Shown here: positions 20,130-56,791 of the stretch, in pieces
Numbering within the stretch: the stretch's first letter is position 1
How the letters are laid out: every line of letters begins with the position of its first letter
Assembly (NCBI GenBank): GCA_964476125.1
Contig: CAYZAE010000015.1
Coordinates: 1-63,972, forward strand
Source of the DNA: an uncultured Verrucomicrobiota bacterium
GTDB taxonomy: Bacteria; Verrucomicrobiota; Verrucomicrobiia; Limisphaerales; CAIMTB01
Length of the DNA: 63,972 nt
Direction: 5' to 3'
Translations under genes and position numbers: made by a program
Notes under the pieces: model-generated
Seen by the model: the letters and a program-made list of their open reading frames with translations, nothing else
The model's database searches: none
Told to the model about the DNA's origin: nothing

Positions 20130-21172
20130 CGCCCCGCCCCCCCCCCGCTCCCGGTTTCCGTCTCGGTCTCCGTCATCCGCCCAAACACCCACAATCCAAC
20201 CATCACCAGCGCCATGGTCAGACAGGCAATGGCGGAGCCAAACGGCCAATCGCGACTGGAACCGAACTGTTGCTGGATGGCATTGCCGAGCAGCACGGTT
20301 TGCGCCCCCCCGAGCAGATCCGGAATCACGAACTGCCCGGTGGCGGCGATGAACACCAGGGTGAACCCCGCCACCAGGCCCGGGACAATCTGCGGCAGCA
20401 AGGCATGACGGAACACCCGCCACCCACTCGCCCCCAGATCGGCGGCCGCCTCCGCCAGGCTCCAGTCGATCTTTTCCACCGAGGCATACAACGGAAGTGC
20501 CAGGAACGGCAGGTAATCGCAGGTCAACCCCACGAACACCGCAAACGTCCCGGGATAAAGCGCCTCCCCCTCGGAAATCAGCCCCACCGCCGCCGCAAAC
20601 CGTGCCGGCCAGCCCTGCGCCGAGAACACGATCTGCCACGCATAGGTCCGAATCAGCAGGTTCGTCCAATAGGGAATGATCACCCCCATCAGCGCCACCC
20701 GACGCCACCGATCCGGCAGGCGCGCGATGAAAAACGTCAGGGGCAGGGCCGCCCCCAGGCAAAGCACCGACGTCGCCGCCGCCATCCCCAGGCTCCGCAG
20801 GACAATCATCGGATACAGCGGCTCGAACCCGAACGGACCGAACCCGGCAAAACGGGCGAAATTATCCCAGGTAAACCGCCACTCCACCTGGCCGTAGTCG
20901 CCCCGCGTCGCGAAAGCCGTCGCCACCACCCCCATCAGGGGAGCCAGAAGGAACACAGCCACCCACAACACCCCCGGCCCGCCTGCTGCCAACGCCCGCC
21001 ATCGCTCCCCGCGAACCGTCAACCGCTCCCCGTAACGCACCCGGATCGACGAACGAGGGATGGGGACAGGTTCCACGGCGACTTGCGTTACCACGCAGCC
21101 CCGGCCCGGATCACGTGCAAAACCTCCCGCCACCTGCCGCCGGACCGACTCCCTCCAGGGCACGTCACCCAA
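20126..21172 (-). CDS. ABC transporter permease, PotB-type fold; start uncertain
   Basis: EAA loop AEAAADLGASGWRVFRHALLPQ. The track start is TTG. The real start is probably an internal GTG about 30-50 codons downstream, before ALAAGGPGVLWVAVFLLAPL. Confidence 0.8.
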   Translation of the reverse strand: MGDVPWRESVRRQVAGGFARDPGRGCVVTQVAVEPVPIPRSSIRVRYGERLTVRGERWRALAAGGPGVLWVAVFLLAPLMGVVATAFATRGDYGQVEWRFTWDNFARFAGFGPFGFEPLYPMIVLRSLGMAAATSVLCLGAALPLTFFIARLPDRWRRVALMGVIIPYWTNLLIRTYAWQIVFSAQGWPARFAAAVGLISEGEALYPGTFAVFVGLTCDYLPFLALPLYASVEKIDWSLAEAAADLGASGWRVFRHALLPQIVPGLVAGFTLVFIAATGQFVIPDLLGGAQTVLLGNAIQQQFGSSRDWPFGSAIACLTMALVMVGLWVFGRMTETETETGSGGGAGR

Positions 21173-21224
21173 TTGTCACCAAGCTGCCATTCGAACGCCG
21201 CGCCCCAAAACCAGGATCAGTCAC

Positions 21225-25010: not shown

Positions 25011-25057
25011 CCAACGTCACTCTTCGGAATCGGTCGATCCTTCCTGAAGCCACCGAA

Positions 25058-25086
25058 TTGTCATTCCTTCGCCATTCTCCAGTCAC
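25058..25086 (+). promoter_or_regulatory. Pho-box-like triple direct repeat with 7+4 nt periodicity
   Basis: TTGTCAT tcct TCGCCAT tctc CAGTCAC lies 70 nt upstream of the phosphoesterase ATG. It has the same architecture as the sites at 53662 and 47808. Confidence 0.45.
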
Positions 25087-33626: not shown

Positions 33627-36600
33627 TCACCGGCTCATCACCCGGAAGAACACCACCGAGCCGTCCGTTGGCACGGACACGCTGGTGTCCGACGTGGTCG
33701 ACAGATCCACCCACGCGCCTTCCGTGAGAGCCGTCCGGCTCTGCACCGTGTAGGGGGCGACGCCCCCGGTCCACGCGATGCGGAGGGCCGTCCCCTCCCG
33801 GATCACCGTGACCTGGATCGGGTCGATCGGGGCAGGCGTCGATTCACCGGCCGGGCCCGGATTGAAGCCGCCCTGTGCGCTGAGAATTCCCAGGGCCGAG
33901 ATGCCGCTCCAATCCGAGGCCCAGTTGCCCTCGGCAAAGGCGCCCTTGAAGGCGGCCGGCTGATAACCGGCCGACGCGGGCGCGACGCGGGTGGAGGTAA
34001 GCGCCGGGCTGCCGGCCGCGGGACGAGGGTCCAGCTTCCCATCCGCCTCACGACTGATCCCGCGCAGTTGGGGATTCACCGAGGTGCTGTTGTTGTTCGA
34101 CGCGGTGGTGAACACCTCGTTCGTGAACACGGGATTCGCGAAGCCCCACCAGAGGTTGTCCTGGATGAGGGGGGCCGAACCCGTCTGCGGTCCGCCGCCA
34201 TTAAGCGGCTGGCCGTTGAAGTCGGTGAAGATGCTGTTGTACCAGCCCGCCTTCACGTACCGGCGGAGGAGCATGGTGTGGTTGTTGGCCGTTCCACCCG
34301 CGGTCGCCCCGGCACCCACCAGCGTGGCGTTGTAGATTTCGTAGGTCGCGGCCGGCACACCATTCCCATCGTTCCGCTCGTTCGGTTCGCCGTTTTGCTC
34401 GGCACCGTTGTCGCGACGGTCGTTCGCCTGAATCGCGAACCAGAACTGGTTCCTGCCGCTCCAGCCCATGTCCGTGTCGAAGGCGTCGTCATCGTTGAAC
34501 GCCGAGACCAGATGGCTCGTGTCGACGGAACCCCCGAAGAACTCGAATCCATCGTCGGCGAACGACAGGGCCTCGACGAATTCGACGACCGTGCCGCGAC
34601 CGACACCGCCGAAGGAAGCGCCGTTGATCTCCTTGTCCGGACTGAGCCGCTGGCCACCGTGACGGATGGACACATAGCGGAGCACACCCGAGCTGTCGTT
34701 GTCGTCGGATCCCCCGAAGCGATGAACGTTCTGGCCGTTGATCACCAGGTCCTCGAGGCCTTCGTACAGCTCATACTTCGGGCTGGCCGCATCCCCGGCC
34801 GCGTTCACGGCCTTGTTGATCCGGGCATTGCCCAGGATCACCAACCCACCCCAAAGCCCGCGATCCGTGACACGCAGGTCCTCGGCATCCGTCAGGTCAT
34901 CCTCCTCGGCCGTGAAGATGATCGGATTATGAGGCGTTCCCTCGGCGATGATCTTTCCACCCCGGCAAACGAACAGGGAACCGAAGTTGGGGGCCGTCCC
35001 GTTCCGTCCCTTGATCACCGTACCCGGCTCGATGCGCAGGGTCGCCCCGCCCAGCACGTACACGTAGTTGGTCAGGATGTAGACATTGGTCGAAGCCCAG
35101 GTGACATCACCCGTGATGGTCTGGTTCGAGACGATGACCTCGTGATCCGTCGGGGGCAGGAAACCGTCCTGGGCGAGGGAGGTCCAGCCGCGGAGCCAGT
35201 TGTCGTGGGCATCAAAGGCGCCGTAGTGGGAGGCTGCCCGCAGGAAGCCGTCGTTCATCACGGCCGCCGCATTGCTGGCCGCAGGACTGCCCGGCATCAG
35301 TCGGGGATCCAGCGCGCCTTTCGCTTCGCGGCTGATCCCGCGGATCATCGGATCCAGGTTGGTCACGTTCCTTCTCGAGGCGGTCGTGAACAGGATGTTG
35401 GTGAACACGGGATCGGTGAAACCCCACCAGAGATTGTTGGTGACCGAGGGGTTGGATCCGGTCTGCGGCCCGCCGCCATTGAGGGGTTGGCCGTTGAAAT
35501 CCGTGAAGATGCTGTTCGCCCAGACCGACTGGTTGTAGCGCCGGAAGAGAAGCGCGTGATTGTTCGCAGTCCCGCCTGCTCCCGCGCCGGCGCCAATCAG
35601 CGTCGCATTGTAAACCTTGTAGTTGGCCACCGGAACTCCGAGCCCATCGTTCCGTTCGTTGGGTTCGCCGTTTTGCTCGGACCCATTGTCACGCCGGTCG
35701 TTCGACTGGAGCGCGAACCAGAACTGGTTGGTTCCGTTGTACCCCTGGTCCATGTCGAAGGCATCGTCGTCGTTGAAGGCCGAGACGAGATACCGCGTGT
35801 TGACGCTGCCGCCAAAGAATTCGAAACCGTCATCCGCGAAGGACACGGCCTCGACATATTCAAGGGTCGTTCCACGGCCGACACCGCCCAGCGACAGCCC
35901 GTTGATTTCCTTGTCAGGACTCAGCCGCTGACCGCCGTGCCGGAGGGAGACGTACCGAAGCACGCCCGAGTTGTCGTTCGCGTTGTCACCGCCGTAGCGA
36001 TGCACGTTCTGTCCGGCGATCACCAGATCCTCCAGACCCTCGTACAATTCGTATTTGGGAGTCGCCGCATCCCCCGCCGCATTGACGGCCTTGTTGATCG
36101 GCGCTTGGCCAAGGATCACCAGCCCGCCCCACAGACCTCGGTCGGTCACCCGGAGGTCTTCAGGATCCGTCACGTCATCTTCCTCGGCGGTAAAGATGAT
36201 CGGACGCGCGGGTGTACCCTCTGCGAAAATCTTTCCGCCACGGCAGACGAAGAGGCAACCGAAGTTCGGAGCGGCACCATTCCGCCCCTTGATCACGGTC
36301 CCAGGCTCGATCCGCAGACTGGCGCCGGAGAGCACGTAGACGTAGTTCGTCAGGATGTACGTCTTGTCCGCGGTCCAAACGACGTTGGACGAAATCGGTC
36401 CCTGAACCGTCACCACCGAGGGATCGCCAGGCGGCACGAGAAATCCGCCCTGGGAGAGGAAGGACCATCCGCTCGCCCAGCCTGTCCGGGAATTGAAGGC
36501 TCCCTTGTAGTTTGCCGGCGTGTAGAACCCATCGGCAGGTGTCGCGCGGGAGGTGGACAGCGCGGGGCTTCCATCAGCGGGCCGGGGATCCAGCATTCCG

Positions 36601-39062
36601 TCGGCCGTGCGACTGATTCCACGCAGCAGCGGATTCACATTGGTCGAGTTGTTGTTCGAGACCTCGGTGAAGAGGCTGTTGGTGAACACGGGCTGCGCAA
36701 AGCCCCACCAGATGTTGTCCTTCAGGGTGGGCGTGGAACCCGTCTGCGGCCCGCCCCCGTTGAGCGGCTGTCCGTTGAAATCCGTGAAAATGCTGTTGTA
36801 CCAACCCGCCTGCACGTAACGGCGCAGCAACATGGTGTGGTTGTTCGCGGTTCCGCCTCCCGTGGCACCCGCCCCAATCAGCGTCGCGTTGTAAATCTCG
36901 TACGTCGATTTCGGCGTTCCATTGCCGTCGTTGCGCTCGTTCGGCTCCCCGTTCTGCTCAGAACCGTTGTCCCGGCGATCGTTCGACTGGATCGCGAACC
37001 AGAATTGGTTCTTTCCGCTCCATCCCATGTCCGTGTCGAAGGCGTCATCGTCGTTGAACGCAGACACCAGGTGCTTCGTATTGACGCTCCCACCGAAGAA
37101 CTCGTAGCCGTCGTCCGCGAACGACAGGGTCTCGACGTAATCGATGATCGTCCCTCGCCCCACACCCCCGAGGGTCAACCCGTTGATCTCCTTGTCCGGA
37201 CTCAACCTCTGGCCACCGTGCCGGAGGGAAACGTACCGAAGCACCCCGGAGTTATCGTCATCATCGTTTCCGCCGAACCGATGAACGTTCTGGCCATTGA
37301 TGACCAGGTCCTCAAGTCCCTCGAACACCTCGTACTTCGGGCTCGTCGCGTCACCCGCCGCGTTCACCGCCTTGTTGATCCGCGCATTGCCGAGAATCAC
37401 CAATCCACCCCAAAGCCCACGATCCGTCACCCCGAGATCAGTCGCATCCGCGAGGTCGTCGTCTTCGGCCGTAAAAATGATCGGCTTCTCCGCAGTTCCA
37501 TCAGCGACGATCTTCGCCCCTCGGCAAACAAACAGACACCCGAAGTTGGGGGCCGCCCCGTTCCGGCCCTTGATCACCGTTCCGGGCTCGATACGCAGGG
37601 TCGCACCAGCGAGCACATACACATAATTCGCCAAAATGTAGGTCTTGTCCGCGGTCCAGACCGTGTCGGACGAAATCGCTCCCCGAACCGTCACCACGGA
37701 CGGGTCGCCAACGGGAGCGAGAAATCCGCCTTGGGACAGAAAGGACCATCCGCTCGCCCAGTTGCCCTTGGCATCGAAAGCTCCCTTGTAGCTCGTCGGA
37801 GCATAGAAGCCGTTGGCGGGCGGAGTGCGCGAGGAACTCAACGCCGGACTCCCATCCGCGGGTCGGGGATCCAGAACGCTGTCGGCCGTGCGGCTGATCC
37901 CGCGAAGCATCGGATTGGCGTTCGTGAGGTTGTTGTTCGAAACCTCGGTGAAGAGGCTGTTGGTGAACACAGGCTGCGCAAAGCCCCACCAGATGTTGTC
38001 CTGCAGGGTGGGCGTGGAACCCGTCTGCGGCCCGCCCCCGTTGAGCGGCTGTCCGTTGAAATCCGTGAAAATGCTGTTGTACCAACCCGCCTGCACGTAA
38101 CGGCGCAGCAACATGGTGTGGTTGTTCGCGGTTCCGCCTCCCGTGGCACCCGCCCCAATCAGCGTCGCGTTGTAAATCTCGTACGTCGATTTCGGCGTTC
38201 CATTGCCGTCGTTGCGCTCGTTCGGCTCCCCGTTCTGCTCAGAACCGTTGTCCCGGCGATCGTTCGACTGGATCGCGAACCAGAATTGGTTCTTTCCGCT
38301 CCATCCCATGTCCGTGTCGAAGGCGTCATCGTCGTTGAACGCAGACACCAGGTGCTTCGTATTGACGCTCCCACCGAAGAACTCGTAGCCGTCGTCCGCG
38401 AACGACAGGGTCTCGACGTAATCGATGATCGTCCCTCGCCCCACACCCCCGAGGGTCAACCCGTTGATCTCCTTGTCCGGACTCAACCTCTGGCCACCGT
38501 GCCGGAGGGAAACGTACCGAAGCACCCCGGAGTTATCGTCATCATCGTTTCCGCCGAACCGATGAACGTTCTGGCCATTGATGACCAGGTCCTCAAGTCC
38601 CTCGAACACCTCGTACTTCGGGCTCGTCGCGTCACCCGCCGCGTTCACCGCCTTGTTGATCCGCGCATTCCCGAGGATCACCAACCCACCCCACAGCCCA
38701 CGATCCGTCACGCCGAGATCAGTCGGATCCGCGAGGTCGTCGTCTTCAGCCGTAAAAATGATCGGCTTCTCCGCAGTTCCCTCGGCCATGATCTTCGCGC
38801 CACGGCAGATGTAGAGGCACCCGAAATTCGGAGCGGCTCCGTTCCGACCCTTCACCACCGTGCCGGCATCGATCCGAAGCGTCGCTCCGGACAGAACATA
38901 GGTGTAGCCGGTGAGCACATAGGTGTTGTCGGCCGTCCAACGGATTTCCCCGGTCAGTGATCCGGAAACCTCATTGGTTGCGGCTTGGGTCGAGGGACCA
39001 GCGCCCACGAACAGGGCAGCCAGAAGGGCACCCACGAAGGGAATTCGAAGTCTTGATTTCAT
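33627..39062 (-). CDS. 1811-aa exported protein made of four tandem ~427-aa beta-helix-like modules plus a C-terminal FFR-type beta domain
   Basis: ATG 39062. Signal peptide MKSRLRIPFVGALLAALFVGAGPSTQA. Each module has Y[VT]YVL.GA[TS]LRI[ED][PA]GTV[IV]KG, DRGLWGGLVILG, FADDG[YF]EFFGGSV, FNDDDAFD[TM]D and NGEPNERNDG. The tail is LRIAWTGGVAPYTVQSRTALTEGAWVDL...VVFFRVMSR. Confidence 0.9.
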   Translation of the reverse strand: MKSRLRIPFVGALLAALFVGAGPSTQAATNEVSGSLTGEIRWTADNTYVLTGYTYVLSGATLRIDAGTVVKGRNGAAPNFGCLYICRGAKIMAEGTAEKPIIFTAEDDDLADPTDLGVTDRGLWGGLVILGNARINKAVNAAGDATSPKYEVFEGLEDLVINGQNVHRFGGNDDDDNSGVLRYVSLRHGGQRLSPDKEINGLTLGGVGRGTIIDYVETLSFADDGYEFFGGSVNTKHLVSAFNDDDAFDTDMGWSGKNQFWFAIQSNDRRDNGSEQNGEPNERNDGNGTPKSTYEIYNATLIGAGATGGGTANNHTMLLRRYVQAGWYNSIFTDFNGQPLNGGGPQTGSTPTLQDNIWWGFAQPVFTNSLFTEVSNNNLTNANPMLRGISRTADSVLDPRPADGSPALSSSRTPPANGFYAPTSYKGAFDAKGNWASGWSFLSQGGFLAPVGDPSVVTVRGAISSDTVWTADKTYILANYVYVLAGATLRIEPGTVIKGRNGAAPNFGCLFVCRGAKIVADGTAEKPIIFTAEDDDLADATDLGVTDRGLWGGLVILGNARINKAVNAAGDATSPKYEVFEGLEDLVINGQNVHRFGGNDDDDNSGVLRYVSLRHGGQRLSPDKEINGLTLGGVGRGTIIDYVETLSFADDGYEFFGGSVNTKHLVSAFNDDDAFDTDMGWSGKNQFWFAIQSNDRRDNGSEQNGEPNERNDGNGTPKSTYEIYNATLIGAGATGGGTANNHTMLLRRYVQAGWYNSIFTDFNGQPLNGGGPQTGSTPTLKDNIWWGFAQPVFTNSLFTEVSNNNSTNVNPLLRGISRTADGMLDPRPADGSPALSTSRATPADGFYTPANYKGAFNSRTGWASGWSFLSQGGFLVPPGDPSVVTVQGPISSNVVWTADKTYILTNYVYVLSGASLRIEPGTVIKGRNGAAPNFGCLFVCRGGKIFAEGTPARPIIFTAEEDDVTDPEDLRVTDRGLWGGLVILGQAPINKAVNAAGDAATPKYELYEGLEDLVIAGQNVHRYGGDNANDNSGVLRYVSLRHGGQRLSPDKEINGLSLGGVGRGTTLEYVEAVSFADDGFEFFGGSVNTRYLVSAFNDDDAFDMDQGYNGTNQFWFALQSNDRRDNGSEQNGEPNERNDGLGVPVANYKVYNATLIGAGAGAGGTANNHALLFRRYNQSVWANSIFTDFNGQPLNGGGPQTGSNPSVTNNLWWGFTDPVFTNILFTTASRRNVTNLDPMIRGISREAKGALDPRLMPGSPAASNAAAVMNDGFLRAASHYGAFDAHDNWLRGWTSLAQDGFLPPTDHEVIVSNQTITGDVTWASTNVYILTNYVYVLGGATLRIEPGTVIKGRNGTAPNFGSLFVCRGGKIIAEGTPHNPIIFTAEEDDLTDAEDLRVTDRGLWGGLVILGNARINKAVNAAGDAASPKYELYEGLEDLVINGQNVHRFGGSDDNDSSGVLRYVSIRHGGQRLSPDKEINGASFGGVGRGTVVEFVEALSFADDGFEFFGGSVDTSHLVSAFNDDDAFDTDMGWSGRNQFWFAIQANDRRDNGAEQNGEPNERNDGNGVPAATYEIYNATLVGAGATAGGTANNHTMLLRRYVKAGWYNSIFTDFNGQPLNGGGPQTGSAPLIQDNLWWGFANPVFTNEVFTTASNNNSTSVNPQLRGISREADGKLDPRPAAGSPALTSTRVAPASAGYQPAAFKGAFAEGNWASDWSGISALGILSAQGGFNPGPAGESTPAPIDPIQVTVIREGTALRIAWTGGVAPYTVQSRTALTEGAWVDLSTTSDTSVSVPTDGSVVFFRVMSR
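36724..37388. repeat. 665-bp stretch identical to 38005-38669
   Basis: Compared nucleotide by nucleotide at an offset of 1281 nt. The first mismatches fall at 36721-36723 and 37389. Confidence 0.9.
38005..38669. repeat. 665-bp stretch identical to 36724-37388
   Basis: See the partner copy. Antisense track ORFs 36878..37165 and 38159..38446 translate identically. Confidence 0.9.
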
Positions 39063-39063
39063 A

Positions 39064-39096
39064 AGCTTCAGGACGGCAATCGCCGTGTCAGAAGCT
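39064..39096 (-). promoter_or_regulatory. stem-loop abutting the giant-gene start codon
   Basis: The minus strand reads GGAGCTTC-tgacacggcgattgccgtcc-tGAAGCTT-ATG. Outer stem is agcttc/gaagct and inner stem is acggc/gccgt. The only GGAG lies at the 5-prime foot of the hairpin. Confidence 0.4.
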
Positions 39097-39172
39097 CCAT
39101 CCTTAATACCGGCGGCAACTTCCCAACGTCGGAATTGTTACGCTCGCGTGACACTCCATTCCCATGCCCCGC

Positions 39173-42094
39173 TCAGTACTCAAAGCTGGCTTGCAGCCCG
39201 AAAGAGATGCCCCGGGTGTTCCAGGTGTAGCGCCTGTTCCCGGGCTGATCGCCATAGGTGCGCTCGTATTCGGCATCCAGCAGATTTCTGGCCGAGGCCC
39301 GGATCCGCCATCGCTTGGCAATTCGCTGCGTCACCAGGAAGTCCACGATCATTGGCGGATGTTCGTAAACATCGGGGCCACCCACGTCGACGAGGTAAAT
39401 CCGGGGAGCCGCCCAGTTGAAGGCCAGGGTGGCCGAGGTTCCCAGACGCTGGTTGTCCCAGGACACATCCGCGTTCGCGATCCATTCCGACTGATCGTAG
39501 AGCGGGCGCGGATCAAGCGACTTCGGGTCGTTGATCTTCTCCTGCGCGGTGAGAGGCACCTCGGAGAGGATGTAGGAGAAGTTGAACCCGGCGGAAAAAT
39601 CGGCCAGCAGGTCATCCACCACGTCCAGCTTGCTGCGGGCCTCGAATTCGGCGCCATACACCTTGGCTTCGGCACGGTTTTCGAAACCCACGATGCCGCC
39701 GCCAAAGGTGATGATCTGCTTTTCGATGGGGTTCTTGAGGTCTTTGTAGAAACCGCTCACCGACACGATCGCGCCGGGCCGGGGGAACCACTCCCACCGG
39801 GCATCGTAGTTTCGAATCGAGCTCATCTGCAGGTTCGGATTGCCCCGAACCACCTCATCGCCGAACGGATCATAGGCCTCGTAACCGGCGATTTCCCGGT
39901 AGGTCGGACGCGCCACCGTGTCGGAATAACTGAGCCGGACGTTCATGTTGGAGGCGACCTGGAACAGCAGGCCGGCGGAGGGCAGAAGGTCGAGCTGACG
40001 GATGGCCGTGTTTGTATCTCCGCGATTGGAGACCGATGCCAGGCTCAAGTCGGTGTTCTCCGGCCGCAGCCCACCCAGGATTTTCACCCAGTCGGTGACC
40101 GGCTGCTCGATCTTGAAATAGCCGGCCACAACCTGCTGGTTGCCGAGATAGGAGAAATCGCCGAACTGCTGGGTCTGAAACCGCCGAACGAACACGTAGT
40201 TCGTTGCGCCCCGGGTGGTTGTTTCCGTGGTGTAGTTCAGATTCTCGGGGGTGAAGTACGTGTTGGGATCTCCCGACGCCGTCCATGCATCGTCCGACTG
40301 GGAGATACCGGGTTCAAAGGCAAAGGCCTTTTGAAAAAAGGTTCGTTCCGAAATTCCCACCGAGGTCCCGGCGCCCAGCACCGTTTCGAGGCCGTCGAGG
40401 ATCCGCAGCTTGATGGTGTCATCAAAGCGGGCCTGGAGGTTCGATTCATCGAGCGCCCGGTAGTTGCGTGCAGGCACCGAGGGCTCAGGAAGAGCGTTGT
40501 TGTTGACCTCGTTCCCGGTGAAGTCGAGCTCCCTCGCGTAATTGAAGAAGCGCTGATCCGGTTCGTCCTGGGTCGTGCCGGCCAGGGAAACCAACCAGTC
40601 GACGTGCATCTCCGACCATTCCTCGAAGTCGTGGCGGCCGAGCATCTGGAAGTTCAGAAGATCGCGTTCGGTCCACTGGAGGGTGCTTCGGTCAATCACC
40701 CGGCCCGGGAGGTTCTCAGGCCGGATTCCGGTCTGCCGGCGGGCCAGATCCTCGCCCGCCCGGTTGTAGATGAAGTTGAAACCGAACTCGTGATCCTCCG
40801 ACAGCTGATAGCCGATCGCGATGACCGAGGACCAGTTCACTTCCGTCAGCGATCGGACGTCCTGGTATTGCTCGTACGGCTCGCTGTCGATGTCCGCGTT
40901 CCGGTACTTGGCCGTGTAGCCGTTATCATAGAAGGTGAACCTGCGGCCGTAGGTGACCGAGGCGAGATACCCGAGCCGTCCCTCCCCCAGGTTGCGGGTG
41001 TCCCCGACCGAGAGAGAACCGGAGTTCGCTGGGGGCGGAGCCGCTTCGGTGGGGGCGAACTGATAGCTCGAAAAGCTGTTCAGATAACCGCGCACCCGGT
41101 CGGCCTGCGCCCGGCGTGCCACCGCCTGCTCCGGGGTCTCCCGTGACACCCGGGTCGGCGTCGCCAAATCGCTGCCTGTCGCGGTGGCGATCGATTTCGG
41201 CAACGCGCGCGATCCGTCGTCGAATCCGGCCCAGTCGGTGGCGCCACCGCGGTAGGTGAGGTAGTTGGGGTTGCCCGTGGCCTGGGTGTTGTATTCCACG
41301 CCCAGGGATCCGTTGAGCAGGAACTTCTCCGGGAAGGACCGAGTCACGATGTTCGCCGCGCCCCCGGCGAATCCGCCGGGAAGATCCGGGGTGAAGGTCT
41401 TGCTGATCAGCATCCGTTCGATCATTCCCGCAGGGATCATGTCCAGCTGCGCCGCCCGCCGGTAAGGATCCGCCGTGGGAACCTCCGCGCCGTTGAGGAG
41501 CGTCAGGTTGTAGCGATCCCCAAGGCCGCGAATAACCGCGAACTTCCCCTCCACCACGGTCGTCCCCGTCACTTTCGTCATGATGTCGGCCGCATCCGAC
41601 ACCCCGAGCCGGCGGAACTGTTCCGAGCCGATGGCCTCCAGGATCGAACTGCCCTCCTGACGTTCCTGCATCACCGCGATGGCTTGTTCCTGAAAGACTT
41701 CCGCGGTGACTTCGTATTCCTCGAGATCGAAGAACTCCGGTCGCAACGTGCCATTCACCGTGGTGGTCTGGCCCGGGAGCACGCGCACCTCGGTGACCAC
41801 GGCCGTCGCATAGCCGGAGCGTGAGAAGCGGACCGCCTGATCCCCAGGCGGAACTCCCTCGATGCGGAACCGGCCGGTGGCGTCGCTGGTGGTGGCCAGG
41901 GTCGTGCCCCGCACCGTCACCGCAGCGCCACCCAGCGGCTTGCCATCCCAACCCTCCACCAGCAGCCCGGCCACGGACCCCGTCTCCTGGGCGCGCGCCC
42001 TCAGGGCAAGCAGGTGAAACAACAGGACCCAACCACCCACCAGACGACACAGGACCTGCGCGACCGATTGGATCCAGCCGGAGCGTGTTTCCAT
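39173..42094 (-). CDS. TonB-dependent receptor with an N-terminal carboxypeptidase-regulatory-like domain
   Basis: ATG 42094 (METRSGW). Motif GLLVEGWDGKPLGGAAVTVRG...TGRFRIEGVPPG. Plug motif VIRGLGDRYNLTLLNG. Long beta-barrel ending ISFGLQASFEY. Confidence 0.9.
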   Translation of the reverse strand: METRSGWIQSVAQVLCRLVGGWVLLFHLLALRARAQETGSVAGLLVEGWDGKPLGGAAVTVRGTTLATTSDATGRFRIEGVPPGDQAVRFSRSGYATAVVTEVRVLPGQTTTVNGTLRPEFFDLEEYEVTAEVFQEQAIAVMQERQEGSSILEAIGSEQFRRLGVSDAADIMTKVTGTTVVEGKFAVIRGLGDRYNLTLLNGAEVPTADPYRRAAQLDMIPAGMIERMLISKTFTPDLPGGFAGGAANIVTRSFPEKFLLNGSLGVEYNTQATGNPNYLTYRGGATDWAGFDDGSRALPKSIATATGSDLATPTRVSRETPEQAVARRAQADRVRGYLNSFSSYQFAPTEAAPPPANSGSLSVGDTRNLGEGRLGYLASVTYGRRFTFYDNGYTAKYRNADIDSEPYEQYQDVRSLTEVNWSSVIAIGYQLSEDHEFGFNFIYNRAGEDLARRQTGIRPENLPGRVIDRSTLQWTERDLLNFQMLGRHDFEEWSEMHVDWLVSLAGTTQDEPDQRFFNYARELDFTGNEVNNNALPEPSVPARNYRALDESNLQARFDDTIKLRILDGLETVLGAGTSVGISERTFFQKAFAFEPGISQSDDAWTASGDPNTYFTPENLNYTTETTTRGATNYVFVRRFQTQQFGDFSYLGNQQVVAGYFKIEQPVTDWVKILGGLRPENTDLSLASVSNRGDTNTAIRQLDLLPSAGLLFQVASNMNVRLSYSDTVARPTYREIAGYEAYDPFGDEVVRGNPNLQMSSIRNYDARWEWFPRPGAIVSVSGFYKDLKNPIEKQIITFGGGIVGFENRAEAKVYGAEFEARSKLDVVDDLLADFSAGFNFSYILSEVPLTAQEKINDPKSLDPRPLYDQSEWIANADVSWDNQRLGTSATLAFNWAAPRIYLVDVGGPDVYEHPPMIVDFLVTQRIAKRWRIRASARNLLDAEYERTYGDQPGNRRYTWNTRGISFGLQASFEY

Positions 42095-42134
42095 GAAATG
42101 CCGTTCCCACTGAGTTTCAGCCCACTCCAACTGT

Positions 42135-43595
42135 TCAAGACCGCGCCCGCGCCGCCACCTGCTCCACCCGTTCGAGGAAGCGGGCCACGTTCTCGCGTGG
42201 CTTCACCTTCTGCGCCCGCCGCAGCAGTTCCACCGCCTCGGTGTACTTCTGCTGCTGCACCTTCAGCTGGGCATGCTTGAGAAAGGCATCCGCAGAGAAC
42301 GCCTCAAGCTTCGCCGCGGCGTCGTACCGGAACTCCGCCTTCTCCCGCTCACCGTTCCGCGCATAGTGATCGCCCGCCAGCAACAGCGCCTCACCATCCA
42401 GCGGGTTGCGTTCAAGGATGGATTCAAGGGTCTTCACCCCGTTGTCCGCATCGCCGGTCGCCAGCGCCACGCGCGCCTCCAGCTTCAGAAGCTTCAACTC
42501 CCCTTCCCCGGCCGGAACACCCGCCGCCCGCACCTTGCCGAGCAGTTCCTTCGCCTGTGGATAGGCGCCGCGTCCGATCAGCACCTCGGCCGGCCGAAGA
42601 CCGCGCTCCGGATTCTTGCCGCCGTCCTTCGCCACCGCCGCGACGTACGATTCCAACGCCAGCTCCCGGTTGTCCTGACCCAGATAAAGATCCCCGAGCA
42701 AAGCCAGCTGCGGGGCCGTGATCAGATCCAGGCGCCGCAGCATCTCGAAATTCACGATCGCCTTCGCCGGCTGTTCGCGCTGGATGAAGACGTTCGCCTG
42801 CAACGCCCACAGCGCCTCCTTGCCCGGCTGCTGTTGAATGAGCTCCTCCAGCAGCGCGATCGCCGCATCAAACTGGCTCAACCCGATCTGCGCCTTCACC
42901 AGGCCCATCTTAAAATCGAGGTTGTCAGGCTCGAACACCGAAGCCTGGAGATAGGCGCCCTGCGCCGACACAAACCGCCCGGCACTCAGGTGCGCAAAGC
43001 CCAGCAAACCGAAGATCTTCCCATCCCCTCCCCCGAGAGCGACCGTCCGCGTCAGCGGCTTGATCGCCTGTTCGAATTTTCCGTCGCGAACCAGGGCAAG
43101 ACCGAGATTTCTTTGCGCCCGCCGGTAGTCTGGAAACTTGGCCAGCGCCTGATCGTACTGGACCACCGCGTTGGTGAAGTCCTCCAGCTGGAAGTAAACC
43201 GTTCCAAGGGTGAAATCGAATACCGCCGAGCCACCTGGTTTCGCCGCCGACTTCAACTCCGGCAGCGCCTTGCGGGGATCCTCGCGCAGCAAGGGCACGA
43301 TCTTGTCCCGGTAAAGTGCCTGCTCCTCCGCCGAGAGCCGGGGCTCGGCCTCCGAAAGAAATCCGTAGCTGCCCAGGAGCCGCCGGGTGAAGTCGGGGTC
43401 GTTCCAGATTCCGGCCAATTCGTGATCGGGCGCCACCGGCGCGAACTGGGTTGGGGCGGTCGCCGCGGCGGAAATCGAAACTCCTTCGGAGGCCGCCACA
43501 CCCCGGCGGGAACGGCCCGACGAAGACTCGGCTCCGTGGACCGGCAGGAACGCCAGACCAGCGAACAGGACGAGGGCAAATGGTTTGGATCGCAT
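42135..43595 (-). CDS. exported TPR-repeat protein, TtpD-like position in the TonB2-type cluster
   Basis: Signal peptide MRSKPFALVLFAGLAFLPVHG. Multiple 34-aa TPR units throughout. Confidence 0.8.
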   Translation of the reverse strand: MRSKPFALVLFAGLAFLPVHGAESSSGRSRRGVAASEGVSISAAATAPTQFAPVAPDHELAGIWNDPDFTRRLLGSYGFLSEAEPRLSAEEQALYRDKIVPLLREDPRKALPELKSAAKPGGSAVFDFTLGTVYFQLEDFTNAVVQYDQALAKFPDYRRAQRNLGLALVRDGKFEQAIKPLTRTVALGGGDGKIFGLLGFAHLSAGRFVSAQGAYLQASVFEPDNLDFKMGLVKAQIGLSQFDAAIALLEELIQQQPGKEALWALQANVFIQREQPAKAIVNFEMLRRLDLITAPQLALLGDLYLGQDNRELALESYVAAVAKDGGKNPERGLRPAEVLIGRGAYPQAKELLGKVRAAGVPAGEGELKLLKLEARVALATGDADNGVKTLESILERNPLDGEALLLAGDHYARNGEREKAEFRYDAAAKLEAFSADAFLKHAQLKVQQQKYTEAVELLRRAQKVKPRENVARFLERVEQVAARARS

Positions 43596-43629
43596 AGGGA
43601 AAAAGGTCGCAACCGAGGTTCTTGTCCCA

Positions 43630-44298
43630 TCAGGACTGGGTGACCCGGAACCGGATCGGCAGGCGCATGTGGGTCTTCACGGCATTGCCGTCCTTCATGC
43701 CAGGCTTGAACCGCCAGCGCCGCACAGCGTCGAGCGCGGGCTTCTCGAATTCGGTCCGCGAGGAGTCCTGGACCCGCGCCTCCTCCACTCGCCCGTCCTC
43801 GGTCAGGAGAAAAACGACAGTCACCGTTCCCTCGATCTTGGCCTTCCGCAGTTCCGCGGGATAAACGGGCGCCACCTGCGCCACGACCTCGGGTCGCCGT
43901 TCTAGCTCCGACACATCAAAGGTGTCCAACGCCGCCTCGACGCCCGCCGCGGCCGAGGCAAGTCCCGTCACGAACCCGGGAAGATACCCACCCGCACCCG
44001 CCGCGAGATCAAGATCGGCCATCACCGGCGCCATGGGAGCCACGTCTTCGCCCAGGGTGGGCGGTGCCGCCTCTTCCTGTTTCGACTCCGCATCCGGGGG
44101 CGGGGGCGGGGGCTCTTCCTCCTGGGGCGGCGGAAGGTCGATGGCACTGGTCTTTCGAAGCTCCAGCACTCGCGACGGTGTCGCGACATTGTGCAGGAAT
44201 GGAATCGTGCAGAAAATCGCCCCCGTCACCCCAACCGCGATCAACACGGAGAAGGCCCATCCGACGGATCCAGACGATGTTTGATAGACCTTTCGCAT
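43630..44298 (-). CDS. tonB: TonB family energy transducer
   Basis: N-terminal TM segment, Pro-rich linker PPPQEEEPPPPPPD, and C-terminal domain YPAELRKAKIEGTVTVVF...AVRRWRFKPG. Confidence 0.85.
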   Translation of the reverse strand: MRKVYQTSSGSVGWAFSVLIAVGVTGAIFCTIPFLHNVATPSRVLELRKTSAIDLPPPQEEEPPPPPPDAESKQEEAAPPTLGEDVAPMAPVMADLDLAAGAGGYLPGFVTGLASAAAGVEAALDTFDVSELERRPEVVAQVAPVYPAELRKAKIEGTVTVVFLLTEDGRVEEARVQDSSRTEFEKPALDAVRRWRFKPGMKDGNAVKTHMRLPIRFRVTQS

Positions 44299-44342
44299 GC
44301 GTTAAACGACGAGTGCCGGACCCCGATCCCTCGCCCGCTTTT

Positions 44343-44747
44343 CTAGCCCTTCTCCGTCGCCAGACTGACGTCTTTCGCCCCCCCGAGCTTGGCCTCATCG
44401 ATCACCCGGACCAGCAACCCCGTACGGGCTGCCTCATCGGCCTGGATCACGACCGGGAGCGGTTCCTTCGTGCACAGCCGCTTGACCGTCGGCCGAACGC
44501 CGCCCAATCCGATTTCCTTGCCCCCGTAAGCCACCTTCCCGTCGCTGGTCACGGCGAAGATGATGCTGGTCTTTTCCATCTGCCGCGCACTCGCCGCCTG
44601 CGGCTTGTCCACCGCCACCCCCGGCATCTCCAGGAAACTCGTGGTCGAAATGAAAAAGATGAGCAGGAACATGATCACGTCGATGAGCGGAATCAGGTTC
44701 AACTCGATGGGCTCCTCGGCTTCGGCGAGTGTTCTTCGAAATCTCAT
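44343..44747 (-). CDS. exbD: ExbD/TolR family protein
   Basis: Motif LNLIPLIDVIMFLLIFFI. The start ATG overlaps the ExbB stop (ATGA at 44744-44747). Confidence 0.9.
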   Translation of the reverse strand: MRFRRTLAEAEEPIELNLIPLIDVIMFLLIFFISTTSFLEMPGVAVDKPQAASARQMEKTSIIFAVTSDGKVAYGGKEIGLGGVRPTVKRLCTKEPLPVVIQADEAARTGLLVRVIDEAKLGGAKDVSLATEKG

Positions 44748-45481
44748 GGCGTGATTGGTTGAGCGGACCCCAGATTCTCGTTGCCTGTCCTCCGATGGCC
44801 CTCACTCCCAGCCCCCATGCCGCCGCCTCCCTCACCACCCGTGCGCTTGCCGGCAACCCGCACGGGCCCGACTCCTGCGGTCGCGGATTCAGAAAACTTT
44901 CCGCGGTGAAATCGGATCGCGATGCTCTCCAACCGAGCGAGGAACGCCATGAACTCAACGCGCCAGCGCTTCGCCACATAGGCTGCCATCCACCCCGGCA
45001 ACGCCACCATCAATCCCGACTGCGTCGCCACTAGCGCCTCGCTGATGCCCCGGGCCACAATTTCGGAGACCGAACTTCCACCGACCCCAATCGCCCGAAA
45101 AGTCAACAGCATGCCCAGCACGGTTCCCAACAAGCCAAAAAGAGGAGCAGCAACCACCATCACCCCGAGCATCGTCAAGTGTCGGTCCGCCTCAGGCACC
45201 TTCGCCGCCTCCACCTCCCGGAATCGGCCCTCCACGTCCCGAAGAGAATGCACCTCGTCCTGGGTGTAGCGAATCAGCTCCTGGATCCTCACCGGAGCCT
45301 TCCCCGGATCCGCCAGCCACGATCGAATCTGGGAATCGCTCGCATTGCGGAGTCCAGGGTAGTGCAGCGAAATCAGCAATCGCGCCGCGGTCGCGTACAT
45401 CGCGAGGGCCAGCGACGCCAGCGCCAGCATGACCCAGCCACCGGTCATCCAGGTGTGGACCATCGTTTCAAATGCGTTCAT
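44744..45481 (-). CDS. exbB: MotA/TolQ/ExbB proton-channel protein, short form
   Basis: Motifs LFGLLGTVLGMLLTF and ISEALVATQSGLMVALP. Confidence 0.85.
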   Translation of the reverse strand: MNAFETMVHTWMTGGWVMLALASLALAMYATAARLLISLHYPGLRNASDSQIRSWLADPGKAPVRIQELIRYTQDEVHSLRDVEGRFREVEAAKVPEADRHLTMLGVMVVAAPLFGLLGTVLGMLLTFRAIGVGGSSVSEIVARGISEALVATQSGLMVALPGWMAAYVAKRWRVEFMAFLARLESIAIRFHRGKFSESATAGVGPVRVAGKRTGGEGGGGMGAGSEGHRRTGNENLGSAQPITP

Positions 45482-45538
45482 GCGGTCGGAACCAAGCGGG
45501 GTTTTTAGAGGACAGCAGGGATGCGAATTCCACGGGAT

Positions 45539-46975
45539 CTAAACCGCATCACCCAACCCACCTTCCGGAACCCCTTCCGGAACCCCGTTGATGAAACCCA
45601 CCGCCGTCTGCTCCATGCTCCCGATGATCCCCTTCGCCATCCGGCCGAGAAACGCGTGAAGCAGGAGCGCGGGAATGGCCACCGTCATGCCCGTCGCCGT
45701 CGCGATAAGGGCCTCCGAAATGCCCGCCGCCAGCACCTTCGGATCGCCGCTGCCGAAACTGGAGATCAACTTGAAGGTCGCGATCATGCCCATGACCGTG
45801 CCCAGCAACCCCATCAGCGGCCCCGTCGTCGCCGTCAATGCCAGGAACGGCAACCCCCGCTCCAGCTTCGTCCGCGCCGCCAGCATGCGCTCATACAGGA
45901 TCTCCTCAATGTACTCCTTCTTCTCGTGGGCATGCTGCACGGCCGTGGCCAGCAGTTCACCCGCAGGCCCCGACACCCGCCGCGCACGAACCAACGCCTG
46001 GTCCTTCTGGCCCGCCTCGAGATGCTTCAACACCGCCTCCAGATCCGCCTCCTTCGCCACCCGGAACCGGGAAAGCTGGAACCATTTCAGGATCGCCACA
46101 ATCAACGCGCAGAAGCCGAGCCCAAGCAGCGGAATCATCGCCCACCCACCCTTCTCCAATTTCTCGTAAAGGCTCTCCTTCAACGCCGCCAGCTTGAAGG
46201 CGTTCCCCAGTGTCGGATCCAGGGCCATGTCCCCGGAACCCGTCGACACCAACTGCCGGCTCGGCTCCACCACGGCCGGTCCCACGTCCACCACGCTCGG
46301 ATCCGCCTTGTTCAACTCCTGCTGCAACGGTCCAGCCGCCTCACCGGAGGCCGCAGCGAAAATCGCCACCGGCCCGATGAGGGCGATCTTCCCCTGCTGC
46401 AACAATCCACGCCGGTCCAGCGCCCGGCCTTCAATCAGTTCCCCACCCAACGCCCCGTCGATGCGAGACAGGGAAAGCGACAAAACCGAGGCCCGCCGAT
46501 CAAAGCGGTCCTGGGCCGTGATGTCGGGCGCGGCCGCCTTCTCCAGTTCGGCAAACTGCGCCGCGTACCTCGGCTCCTCCGCGAACAACAAGCGCGAGCG
46601 GAACGCACGCGCGTACTCGCTGAGAAGTGAGTCGACGTATTTGACCTCCTCCAGCCGGCGCTTCGACTCCGCCTTCAACGCATTGAGTTCGACCAGCTGG
46701 TTCTCCTGGAACCGCTGGGCCTTCCCCAATTCGGCACGACGCTCCGCCAATTGTTGTTCCAATGCGGCCAGTTCCCGCGCCAGCGGCACGCGCTCCGCCT
46801 CCACGACCTTGCGCTGCTCGGACAATTCATTCAGCGCCGCCTTCAGGTCTTTGGCCGAGCCAGCTGCCAACGCCCCCAAGTCCTGGGCTACGCCCATGCC
46901 CGGATACAAAAGCAACGAAGCCAACCCAAGGAACAGCGATTTTGAGATCCCGGAAATCATCGGACAAAGGCTCAT
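45539..46975 (-). CDS. long MotA/TolQ/ExbB family protein with a ~250-aa periplasmic coiled-coil N-domain (TtpC-like)
   Basis: Motifs GLLGTVMGMIATF and ISEALIATATGMTVAIPALL. The start overlaps the upstream stop (ATGA at 46972-46975). Confidence 0.8.
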   Translation of the reverse strand: MSLCPMISGISKSLFLGLASLLLYPGMGVAQDLGALAAGSAKDLKAALNELSEQRKVVEAERVPLARELAALEQQLAERRAELGKAQRFQENQLVELNALKAESKRRLEEVKYVDSLLSEYARAFRSRLLFAEEPRYAAQFAELEKAAAPDITAQDRFDRRASVLSLSLSRIDGALGGELIEGRALDRRGLLQQGKIALIGPVAIFAAASGEAAGPLQQELNKADPSVVDVGPAVVEPSRQLVSTGSGDMALDPTLGNAFKLAALKESLYEKLEKGGWAMIPLLGLGFCALIVAILKWFQLSRFRVAKEADLEAVLKHLEAGQKDQALVRARRVSGPAGELLATAVQHAHEKKEYIEEILYERMLAARTKLERGLPFLALTATTGPLMGLLGTVMGMIATFKLISSFGSGDPKVLAAGISEALIATATGMTVAIPALLLHAFLGRMAKGIIGSMEQTAVGFINGVPEGVPEGGLGDAV

Positions 46976-47772
46976 CGGATTGTGACAGGTAGAGGGACAA
47001 AGGTGGCGGTGCGCTCACCTCGATAGATGCGAACCACCTCACGCACCGGCGCGGACAACGCGGCCTCCGCGGTCCACTCCCAACCTTGCGCCCCGGGCTG
47101 GCCCCGACCCGAAAACTCCCCGGTCTGATTGACGAAATAGCCGGCCCCAAGCCCGACATAAACGGTTTCCACCGCCATCTCGTCGCCCGCTGGGTTCTTC
47201 CGCTTCTCGGAGGCCAGAGTCACCGCGTTGTTGAACTTGTCCACCTCGTTGAGCACGGACACCACGGTCTGCAGGCGCTCCGTGACCCCCGTCTTCGTCG
47301 TCTTCGCATCCTCGGGCAAGCGGGCCAGGAGGGGTTTCAGGGTCTCTTGCAGCGGAGAAGGCAACCGCGGCACGAGAGCACGAATCTTCTGCTCCAAGCC
47401 CTCCAGGGTGGTCCTGGCGTGGTCCAGGGTGGAGTTCGATTCCTTCAGCTCCAGCTCCGCGGTGGCCCGCTCCCGATCCACCTGGGCGGAATTCGTGGTA
47501 ACCTTCCCGCGCTGCTCCGCGATGCCGGCAAGCTCACGCTCATACAGCGCCTTGGTCTGCAGCAGCAGGTCCTTCTCGGACTCCCAATCGGTCCTGGTGC
47601 GGGAGATGAGTTGGCGGGTCTGGACCCACTGCTCCACGCCCGACCGGGCCGTGGCCAGCGGGCTTTCCACCGCACCCCGCGCCGTCACCAGGACGAATAC
47701 CATCCCCACGAGCGACGCTCGAAGGAAGTGGCCAACCCCGAGAGGAGGCTGATTGTTTGGCTGCACTTGCAT
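46972..47772 (-). CDS. DUF3450-like coiled-coil protein (TtpB-like), first gene of the operon
   Basis: ATG 47772 is preceded by GAGGG at an 8-nt spacing; the track GTG is at 47781. Signal/anchor segment followed by coiled-coil. The tail is YVGLGAGYFVNQTGEF. Confidence 0.75.
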   Translation of the reverse strand: MQVQPNNQPPLGVGHFLRASLVGMVFVLVTARGAVESPLATARSGVEQWVQTRQLISRTRTDWESEKDLLLQTKALYERELAGIAEQRGKVTTNSAQVDRERATAELELKESNSTLDHARTTLEGLEQKIRALVPRLPSPLQETLKPLLARLPEDAKTTKTGVTERLQTVVSVLNEVDKFNNAVTLASEKRKNPAGDEMAVETVYVGLGAGYFVNQTGEFSGRGQPGAQGWEWTAEAALSAPVREVVRIYRGERTATFVPLPVTIR

Positions 47773-47807
47773 CGCTATCACCCTCTCAACCCATTAGTTC
47801 CACTGAA

Positions 47808-47836
47808 GGGTCGAAAGTGTTACAATTCCGTGACAA
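47808..47836 (-). promoter_or_regulatory. Pho-box-like triple direct repeat upstream of the TonB2-type operon
   Basis: The minus strand reads TTGTCAC ggaa TTGTAAC actt TCGACCC. After 11 nt comes TAATGG (a possible -10), then GAGGG and ATG 47772. Confidence 0.5.
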
Positions 47837-47963
47837 CACCCCCTTCCATCAGCCACTCCGCACTTTCGCTGCCCCCCTTGATAAGGTTTCATTCCACCCG
47901 GCAGCCATTCCGCCGCCACCCGGGAATCAAACCTGAACCGATCATCACCCCACTTCCCCCCCT

Positions 47964-52870: not shown

Positions 52871-52875
52871 AGGGC

Positions 52876-53505
52876 TCAGGAGTTCTTCAGGACAATGTGG
52901 GTGACAATCGCCCCGATATCCCGGGAACGGTCCACCAGCTTCTCGAGAATGTCGTAGAGATCCTTCCGAGCCACCAACTTCCCGGCGGGCAGGTCGTCGT
53001 GGTACAAATCCCGAATCAAATCCTCCAACACCCGGTCCGCCGCGTCCTCCGTCTCCTCCAGTTTGTCGTTCAACGCCTTCACGGTCTCCAGCGGCGGCAT
53101 CTTCCTCAAATGCCGAATCATCTCCACCGAGAGCCTCACCGCCTCGTCGATCAACCGACCCTGTTCCTTGAAATCCACCCCCTGCACCAAATCGTTCACC
53201 ACGCGATAGCGCTCGGCAAACTTCTCCATGGCCTTCACCAAACGGTAAAGAGCCCTCGACAGGGCCTCGATGTCCTCCCGCTCCAATTCCGTCACGAAGG
53301 TGCGCACCAACCGCTCATCGATCTCCTTCAGAAGCTTCCGCTCCCGTCGTTCCGACGCGAGAAAGACATCGAGACTCTCCATCCCCAGCTTCCCTCGGAG
53401 AATTCCAGTCAGCGTCCCCACACTCGTCTGCGCCTCGGCGGCACAGGTCTCAAGAAGTTCTAAAAATGCGGCGTCTTTCGCCAAAAAATGCTGGATGGAG
53501 AACAT
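52876..53505 (-). CDS. DUF47 / PhoU-like phosphate transport regulator partner of Pit
   Basis: ATG 53505 (MFSIQHFLAKD). Helical protein located 5 nt upstream of pit. Confidence 0.8.
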   Translation of the reverse strand: MFSIQHFLAKDAAFLELLETCAAEAQTSVGTLTGILRGKLGMESLDVFLASERRERKLLKEIDERLVRTFVTELEREDIEALSRALYRLVKAMEKFAERYRVVNDLVQGVDFKEQGRLIDEAVRLSVEMIRHLRKMPPLETVKALNDKLEETEDAADRVLEDLIRDLYHDDLPAGKLVARKDLYDILEKLVDRSRDIGAIVTHIVLKNS

Positions 53506-53661
53506 GGCGCTCGATGGTTTGAAAGCGGGTGACTCCACCGATCGATCTACCCGATGGATGGCTTCACGCCCGTGAGCCTACCCGACCGCCCGCCCAAGGT
53601 CACGCTCTCCTAAGGTAACGTTTCATGCGCTACCCAAACCGCCTCCGGCCCCAAGACCACT

Positions 53662-53690
53662 TCGTCATGAAATCGTAACAATGAAGACAC
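53662..53690 (+). promoter_or_regulatory. Pho-box-like triple direct repeat upstream of pstS
   Basis: TCGTCAT gaaa TCGTAAC aatg AAGACAC. After 8 nt comes TACAGG. The site lies 26 nt before GTG 53716. Confidence 0.5.
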
Positions 53691-53715
53691 TTGCACGCTA
53701 CAGGGGTCGGGAAAG

Positions 53716-54627: not shown

Positions 54628-54650
54628 CCGGTCCCCCCCAGCCGAAACCC

Positions 54651-55840
<1,190 letters not shown>

Positions 55841-55844
<4 letters not shown>

Positions 55845-56779: not shown

Positions 56780-56791
56780 CCGATCGGCACC

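Follow-up and report, generated by a model that had tools for sequence, protein, structure and literature searches.

A candidate PhoB-type promoter array upstream of a TonB2-type operon in an uncultured Verrucomicrobiota bacterium

In this study, a stretch of 63,972 nucleotides from an uncultured Verrucomicrobiota bacterium (the window) was analysed by sequence comparison. Upstream of a minus-strand operon that begins with ttpB, we found a conserved array of four 7-nt direct repeats that probably functions as a PhoB-type site of the phosphate regulon. The initial annotation of this DNA had tied the operon, which encodes a TonB2-type system, a TonB-dependent receptor and a giant protein, to the phosphate-starvation regulon. 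Comparative evidence, namely the conservation of the array in relatives and its sharing with pstS and a phosphoesterase gene, supports that tie.

Results

The ttpB operon and its neighbourhood

The operon and the phosphate transport genes of the window are as follows.

33627..47772, minus strand: operon ttpB-ttpC-exbB-exbD-tonB-ttpD-TonB-dependent receptor-giant protein
46972-47772, minus strand: ttpB (DUF3450), Pfam match above the curated cut-off
45539-46975, minus strand: ttpC (long MotA/ExbB-family), Pfam match above the curated cut-off
44744-45481, minus strand: exbB, Pfam match above the curated cut-off
44343-44747, minus strand: exbD, Pfam match above the curated cut-off
43630-44298, minus strand: tonB, Pfam match above the curated cut-off
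42135-43595, minus strand: ttpD (TPR), Pfam match above the curated cut-off
39173-42130, minus strand: TonB-dependent receptor with CarboxypepD_reg and Plug domains, Pfam match above the curated cut-off
33627-39062, minus strand: giant protein of 1811 aa, no match in the local Pfam copy
47964-49163, plus strand: FIST-domain gene, divergent from the ttpB operon
51749-52870, minus strand: Pit-type PHO4 transporter
53716-58506: pstS-pstC-pstA-pstB-phoU, PstS above the NCBIfam cut-off

Judged by their Pfam matches and their order, the first six genes of the operon are a six-component TonB2-type system. A genome scan with the single TtpB protein as query returned no loci; the scan was repeated with an alignment of TtpB homologues and yielded 79 loci in species-representative genomes, nearly all of them Verrucomicrobiota MAGs. 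The gene order of the operon was the same in 51-75 of these 79 related loci. Some of the operon-bearing MAG records are titled 'Akkermansia muciniphila', 'Bifidobacterium' or 'Bifidobacteriaceae' (L003, L006, L007, L016-L018, L028, L048, L059), and these labels look wrong.

The DNA of the window has a G+C content of 65% and encodes PSCyt/PSD1/DUF1501 proteins, and the homologues of its TtpB come from Verrucomicrobiota. Genes that are typical of the PVC superphylum and unrelated to the array lie at 9622-18279 (minus strand): they encode a WD40-repeat Ser/Thr kinase, an ECF-type sigma factor, and DUF1501 paired with PSCyt/PSD1 (planctomycete cytochrome). The window sequence was present at full identity in many lake-water metagenomes. 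In lake metatranscriptomes, three short contigs were found to lie inside ttpB, which indicates that the gene is transcribed; the contigs carry no 5'-end information.

The promoter array upstream of ttpB

Re-reading of the window sequence gave TTGTCAC ggaa TTGTAAC actt TCGACCC on the minus strand from 47836 to 47808, in agreement with the initial annotation, and TAATGG, GAGGG and the ATG at 47772 were likewise found where they had been placed. The architecture and the period described there were also right; however, the site had been counted as three 7-nt direct repeats with 4-nt spacers, whereas there are four, GTGGAAC at 47803-47797 having been missed. The elements of the promoter are as follows.

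47797..47836, minus strand: four-repeat array, 7-nt direct repeats with an exact 11-bp period
47836-47830, minus strand: repeat 1, TTGTCAC
47825-47819, minus strand: repeat 2, TTGTAAC
47814-47808, minus strand: repeat 3, TCGACCC
47803-47797, minus strand: repeat 4, GTGGAAC
47780..47785, minus strand: -10-like hexamer GAGGGT (nAnnnT), 11 nt downstream of repeat 4
47770..47772, minus strand: ATG start of ttpB, 7 nt past GAGGGT; probable transcription start

The array is located in a 191-bp intergenic region, between the divergent FIST-domain gene and a minus-strand ORF at 46972-47781 that becomes 46972-47772 when begun at the ATG. Repeats 3 and 4 are weak, TCGACCC agreeing with the consensus at 4 of 7 positions and GTGGAAC at 3 of 7. 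When the region upstream of ttpB was scanned for sigma-70 promoters and terminators, no match and no -35 element were found; an Rfam search of 47650-48050 yielded no RNA family, and no Fur-box-like AT-rich palindrome was seen by eye in the promoter. That the site stands in place of a -35 element, as had been proposed, was therefore borne out, given that no -35 was found and that a conserved hexamer lies 10-11 nt past repeat 4.

Conservation of the promoter in related loci

In most loci in which TtpB was 45-69% identical, a TYGTCAC-N4-TYGTAAC pair was found just upstream of ttpB, in the orientation of the gene; the pair was absent from distant loci with a TtpB identity of 25-39%. The consensus of 51 orthologous promoters was TYGTCAC-nGAA-TYGTMAC-N4-cCGcCAy-N4-cYGtCAC. 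This profile comprises four direct repeats with an exact 11-bp period and with near-invariant G, T, A and C positions. The repeat core, TYGTCAC or TYGTMAC, resembles TGTCA, and its G3, T4 and A6 were invariant or nearly so across the 51 promoters. The nGAA spacer between repeats 1 and 2 is A-rich in its 3' half only (A in 43/51 and 33/51), and the other spacers were not conserved.

Downstream of repeat 4, a spacer of 10 nt in most orthologous loci, and of 11 nt in the window, leads to a hexamer of which only position 2 (A, 45/51) and position 6 (T, 42/51) were conserved. Positions 2 (A) and 6 (T) are the two strongest positions of the sigma-70 -10 element, and GAGGGT was taken as the candidate -10 on the basis of this conservation. 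In 43 of the 51 loci, 6-9 nt separate the hexamer from the first start codon in frame (ATG in most), which suggests that the ttpB mRNA is probably leaderless and starts at or next to the ATG at 47772. We know of no documentation of leaderless translation in Verrucomicrobiota.

The footprint of the promoter among close relatives was examined by alignment with the three nearest ones (L080-L082), in which TtpB is 74-88% identical. Their intergenic DNA was largely unalignable outside the promoter elements; the invariant positions were TTGTCACGGAAT-GT-AC, GGAAC within repeat 4, the hexamer's A and T, and the start codon ATG. TAATGG, which had been proposed as the -10, occupies 47796-47791, within the spacer after repeat 4, and its position reads CCTGTCG, CCTGCCG or CCTGCCC in these relatives. 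GAGGG, which had been read as a Shine-Dalgarno sequence, lies within 47785-47781 (minus strand) and overlaps the conserved nAnnnT hexamer GAGGGT; its position reads AAGTC, AAGGC or AACGC, and the purine-rich stretch is not conserved. Because neither element is kept even in these close relatives, TAATGG was rejected as a -10 and GAGGG as a ribosome-binding site.

The ATG at 47772 and the codons after it were conserved in L080 and L081. The TtpB product from this start comprises 266 aa, and the homologues P0002 and P0003 cover 100% of it. The public TtpB call P0001 (243 aa) begins 23 codons downstream of this ATG (stretch 47703-47772, minus strand). The longer start is probably the conserved one (P0002, P0003, L080-L082) and the P0001 start a mis-call; the short call was probably made because a Shine-Dalgarno sequence is missing.

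The FIST-domain gene and a hybrid histidine kinase gene are divergent from the operon in the window and in one relative at 74% identity, the only other occurrence of the FIST gene. Neither gene occurs in any of the 79 more distant loci that have kept the array, and we therefore rejected them as the target of the array or as the source of its regulation.

Additional arrays in the window

The pattern TYGTMAY-N4-TYGTMAY had two exact matches in the window, whereas 0.01 was expected from shuffles. One is the ttpB site; the other, at 53662-53679 (plus strand) before pstS, lies 46 nt upstream of the proposed TTG start of that gene. When two mismatches were permitted, 11 matches were found, compared with 5.7 expected. 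Because this pattern had been drawn from those same sites, an independent test was run using a 40-nt weight matrix trained solely on the 51 orthologous promoters of other Verrucomicrobiota genomes. When the window was scanned with this matrix, five matches scored at least 17.8 (33.8, 33.1, 29.5, 22.4 and 17.8), the ttpB site being the one at 33.8; the next-best score, 6.8, came from the reverse strand of the ttpB site. In 200 dinucleotide-preserving shuffles, no match reached 17.8, and the maximum was 14.3. All five matches were intergenic (intergenic DNA makes up 9.6% of the window), and each was oriented toward its downstream gene. At each of the four further sites, the four repeats are followed by a 10-nt spacer and nAnnnT; these sites are as follows.

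53662..53701, plus strand: pstS array, TCGTCAT gaaa TCGTAAC aatg AAGACAC ttgc ACGCTAC, score 29.5
53712-53717, plus strand: AAAGGT, 10 nt past the pstS array and followed after 7 nt by an in-frame TTG at 53725 (MKRRH)
25047..25086, plus strand: phosphoesterase array, AAGCCAC cgaa TTGTCAT tcct TCGCCAT tctc CAGTCAC, score 17.8, with GACTGT 10 nt further on
25156-27774: phosphoesterase-family gene downstream of the array at 25047..25086 (plus strand)
39115..39154, minus strand: giant-gene array, GTGTCAC gcga GCGTAAC aatt CCGACGT tggg AAGTTGC, score 22.4, with AAGGAT 10 nt further on
21162..21201, plus strand: 181-aa ORF array, ACGTCAC ccaa TTGTCAC caag CTGCCAT tcga ACGCCGC, score 33.1
21225-21770, plus strand: 181-aa ORF, its ATG (21225) 7 nt past CAGGAT, which lies 10 nt past the array

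A common architecture upstream of pstS and of the phosphoesterase gene, claimed in the initial annotation, was thus recovered with a matrix built from foreign genomes (scores of 29.5 and 17.8). The TTG at 53725, which would be a leaderless and non-ATG start, is probably the start of pstS, rather than the GTG at 53716 given by the ORF finder. The array at 39115..39154, located between the receptor and giant-protein genes, would imply an internal promoter. The p220-PHO4 (Pit-type) operon that is divergent from pstS (51749-53538, minus strand) had no array of its own; its pair of PHO4 and an upstream 220-aa protein is also found beside pst or ttpB genes in L001, L063, L014 and L020. The 181-aa ORF has a homologue in L026 (BLASTP, 7e-11), which likewise carries the array and matches DUF772 (transposase-like) weakly. 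A minus-strand ORF at 21234-21794 that overlaps the 181-aa ORF is probably spurious. PotB/PotC-like ABC permease genes (19296-21172, minus strand) are divergent from the 181-aa ORF, and the array is oriented away from them.

Arrays and pst genes in related loci

The matrix was also used to scan 1.2 Mb of related loci at a threshold score of at least 20. Of the 95 positions found, 67 were located before ttpB, 11 before a homologue of the giant-protein (beta-helix) gene, 2 directly before pstS, and 15 elsewhere. Eight of these last 15 precede a gene for an outer-membrane protein (porin) of 450-480 aa; two of the eight porins were checked against Pfam, and both were Porin_5. In six of these eight loci, pstS comes after the porin gene; the remaining two end before any pstS is visible. 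The other seven arrays stand before a 181-aa ORF homologue, a gene for an AraC-type regulator, beta-helix-like genes, short ORFs and the edge of a contig.

pstSCAB-phoU adjoins ttpB or is divergent from it in 13 of the 79 loci. Among the 13 pstS-holding loci, 11 carry an array that precedes pstS or its porin gene and lies on the same strand as pstS, and 8 of those 11 pst-linked arrays score at least 15.9. In at least one locus, L067, the pst and ttpB operons are divergent, and their shared intergenic region carries two opposite-facing arrays. The presence of the array before pstS or porin-pstSCAB-phoU and before the phosphoesterase gene argues for placing the TonB2-receptor-beta-helix system in the phosphate-starvation regulon. 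Several array targets have no known phosphorus link (the 181-aa ORF, the AraC-type regulator and small ORFs), and this holds for two of the five target genes in the window. Given that neither phoB nor phoR lies in the window, and that ten related loci show no response regulator beside phoU, the regulator was inferred from the site itself. Freshwater Verrucomicrobia MAGs are reported to carry phoRB (PMC5615132).

The giant protein and the receptor

In the giant protein, PF28492 Beta_helix_4 (the label of a public collection) is repeated in tandem four times, each copy spanning about 1281 nt; searches of local Pfam, NCBIfam and PDB sequence libraries gave no match for the protein. The amino-acid sequences of its first two copies are almost the same, and a recent duplication or an assembly effect is therefore possible. 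More than 5,800 Beta_helix_4 homologues were found; they are usually of about 540 aa with a single copy, and many bear the name T9SS C-terminal target protein. One copy, when modelled with AlphaFold (pLDDT 89.8, pTM 0.93), formed a right-handed beta-helix, and it resembled only generic tailspikes and beta-helix enzymes/pectate lyases (E >=1e-3, TM <=0.3). Neither the sequence libraries nor the structure match gave a pointer to a phosphorus substrate for this protein.

A gene pair of a CarboxypepD_reg-type receptor and a Beta_helix_4 protein recurred in KSB1, in Chitinivibrionales and in another lineage. The pairs in those lineages are as follows.

L084, 6049-11815: receptor and Beta_helix_4 pair
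L085, 5882-12012: receptor and Beta_helix_4 pair
L086, 5525-12723: receptor and Beta_helix_4 pair

Because it recurs across phyla, the pair appears to be a module in its own right. The KSB1 pair adjoins a divergent OmpR-type two-component system, and the Chitinivibrionales pair adjoins a sigma-54 activator. The promoters of the pair in KSB1 and Chitinivibrionales are AT-rich.

Discussion

The array can be compared with well-studied promoters. In the E. coli pstS promoter, two Pho boxes stand in tandem. The E. coli Pho box spans 22 bp, in which a 7-bp repeat plus a 4-bp A/T-rich stretch occurs twice in direct orientation; a PhoB dimer binds the box, which takes the position of the -35 element (PMC4971064). 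The array described here is like the E. coli Pho box in its 7-bp repeats, 4-bp spacers, 11-bp period, TGTCA core and tandem boxes. As in E. coli PhoB promoters, it replaces the -35, ends about 10 nt from the candidate -10, and precedes pstS and phosphoesterase genes. However, whereas the E. coli box reads CTGTCAT-AWAW-CTGTCAY, the box here is TYGTCAC-nGAA-TYGTMAC, with a spacer that is not fully A/T-rich. Also unlike the E. coli Pho promoters, the proximal box (cCGcCAy, cYGtCAC) is degenerate, the candidate -10 (nAnnnT) is rich in G+C, and the transcripts are apparently leaderless.

In Pseudomonas aeruginosa, PhoB binds a pho box at the promoter that drives exbB2-exbD2-tonB4, and the operon sits alongside genes for the secretion of a very large exoprotein (PMC4971064). 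The window resembles this phdA-pdtB-exbB2-exbD2-tonB4 arrangement (the PUMA3 regulon) in that a pho box, here recognised by its sequence, would drive a dedicated ExbB/ExbD/TonB set under phosphate starvation. In P. aeruginosa, however, the pho box precedes a distinct -35/-10 pair that is recognised by the ECF sigma factor VreI, whereas the promoter in the window shows neither a -35 nor any hint of a sigma partner; moreover, the energiser here is of the six-gene TonB2 type, and the receptor itself lies within the operon. The Vibrio TonB2 system (TtpB-TtpC-ExbB-ExbD-TonB-TtpD) has the same six components in the same order as the system found here, but it is switched on when iron is depleted and works for siderophore receptors (PMC6957404), whereas a Pho-type array is present here. 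Unlike the Vibrio system, the operon in the window extends further, with genes for a CarboxypepD_reg-type receptor and a Beta_helix_4 protein. Finally, the PhoB regulon of Caulobacter crescentus includes several TonB-dependent receptors, which are thought to import alternative phosphorus sources (PMC11208175). The Caulobacter regulon was defined experimentally, whereas the link proposed here was drawn by comparing sequences and includes the energiser genes themselves.

Other readings of the array were considered. It could serve a different regulator of the OmpR/PhoB family that responds to a non-phosphate signal (iron or another nutrient, envelope stress, or the FIST/hybrid kinase pair), with pstS sharing the site for a separate reason. 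Direct repeats with an 11-bp period are common to many OmpR-family regulators, which leaves room for such a reading, as do the FIST and hybrid kinase genes divergent from the operon here and in the one 74% relative, and the OmpR-type two-component system that adjoins the receptor and Beta_helix_4 pair in the KSB1 genome. The iron regulation of Vibrio TonB2 systems (PMC6957404) points the same way. Nevertheless, we regard this reading as unlikely, given that a TGTCA core with the 7+4 architecture is the PhoB pattern, that the array heads pstS or porin-pstSCAB-phoU here and in 11 of 13 related loci as well as the phosphoesterase gene here, that no Fur-box-like palindrome was seen by eye, and that the FIST and kinase genes are missing from all 79 distant loci in which the array is kept.

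A much less probable reading is that the region is a core promoter for an alternative sigma factor, with an ECF sigma reading the GGAAC of repeat 4 as its -35, and that no activator site exists. GGAAC is a common ECF -35 motif, and ECF promoter elements are about 16-17 nt apart. The invariance of GGAAC in close relatives, the failure to find a sigma-70 -35/-10 pair in the region, and the ECF-type sigma gene at 12858-13616 of the window would fit this reading. It fails on spacing, because GGAAC is only 10-11 nt from the nAnnnT hexamer. Furthermore, repeat 4 reads CGTCAC or CGACAC rather than GGAAC in most orthologues, sigma contact does not explain four repeats over 40 nt at the helical period, and the best-conserved positions fall in the two repeats furthest from the start, about 45-62 nt before it.

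That the likeness to a Pho box is a functionless chance match is barely credible: short degenerate patterns do arise at random, as the two-mismatch count illustrates (11 against 5.7), but the independent matrix found five matches against none in 200 shuffles, and position, orientation and spacing are kept in dozens of genomes amid unalignable intergenic DNA.

We thus return to the PhoB-type reading of the array. Since a Pho box comprises two repeats, four repeats would represent two tandem Pho boxes, each for a dimer of a phosphorylated PhoB-type (OmpR-family) response regulator. Under phosphate scarcity, which is the presumed signal, two dimers of the PhoB orthologue would occupy 47836-47797. 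The array ends 11 nt upstream of the weak -10, so the bound regulator would be positioned to recruit sigma-70 RNA polymerase to GAGGGT, as PhoB does in E. coli. Transcription would then begin at or beside the ATG at 47772 and give a leaderless mRNA, and a further, internal promoter would be supplied by the array before the gene of the giant beta-helix protein. The TonB2-receptor-beta-helix system would presumably import a phosphorus-containing compound across the outer membrane, or capture it there.

A more far-reaching idea, which we put forward tentatively and hold to be somewhat less probable than its opposite, is that the operon encodes an unrecognised, Verrucomicrobiota-wide machine for phosphorus scavenging. 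It would consist of a starvation-induced TonB2 energiser, a CarboxypepD_reg-type receptor, and a surface Beta_helix_4 protein that captures or degrades a polymeric organophosphate for import; example substrates would be a phosphorylated polysaccharide, a teichoic-acid-like polymer, a nucleic acid or polyphosphate. If this is true, the receptor and Beta_helix_4 module could be a general and unstudied uptake route, given its recurrence in KSB1 and Chitinivibrionales.

Pho boxes as such are well established, and PhoB control is already known for TonB-dependent receptors (Caulobacter) and for an exbB-exbD-tonB set (P. aeruginosa). No described Pho box for Verrucomicrobiota was found in the literature searched. 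What is apparently new is the phylum, the consensus, and the seemingly leaderless design of the promoter, together with the proposed placing of a complete TonB2-type energiser and an uncharacterised receptor/Beta_helix_4 module in the phosphate regulon.

Freshwater Verrucomicrobiota are abundant and mostly uncultured, and they live in lakes that are often phosphorus-limited; to our knowledge, their gene regulation is essentially undescribed. The present analysis yields a testable Pho-box consensus for this clade and a promoter model in which the -35 is missing, the -10 is weak and the mRNA is leaderless, as well as a candidate regulon that contains a conserved TonB2-receptor-beta-helix system. 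Phosphate starvation thereby becomes a concrete condition under which this uptake system and the large Beta_helix_4 family may be studied, and the arrays and their genes would provide a set of markers by which phosphorus stress could be recognised in metatranscriptomes from lakes.
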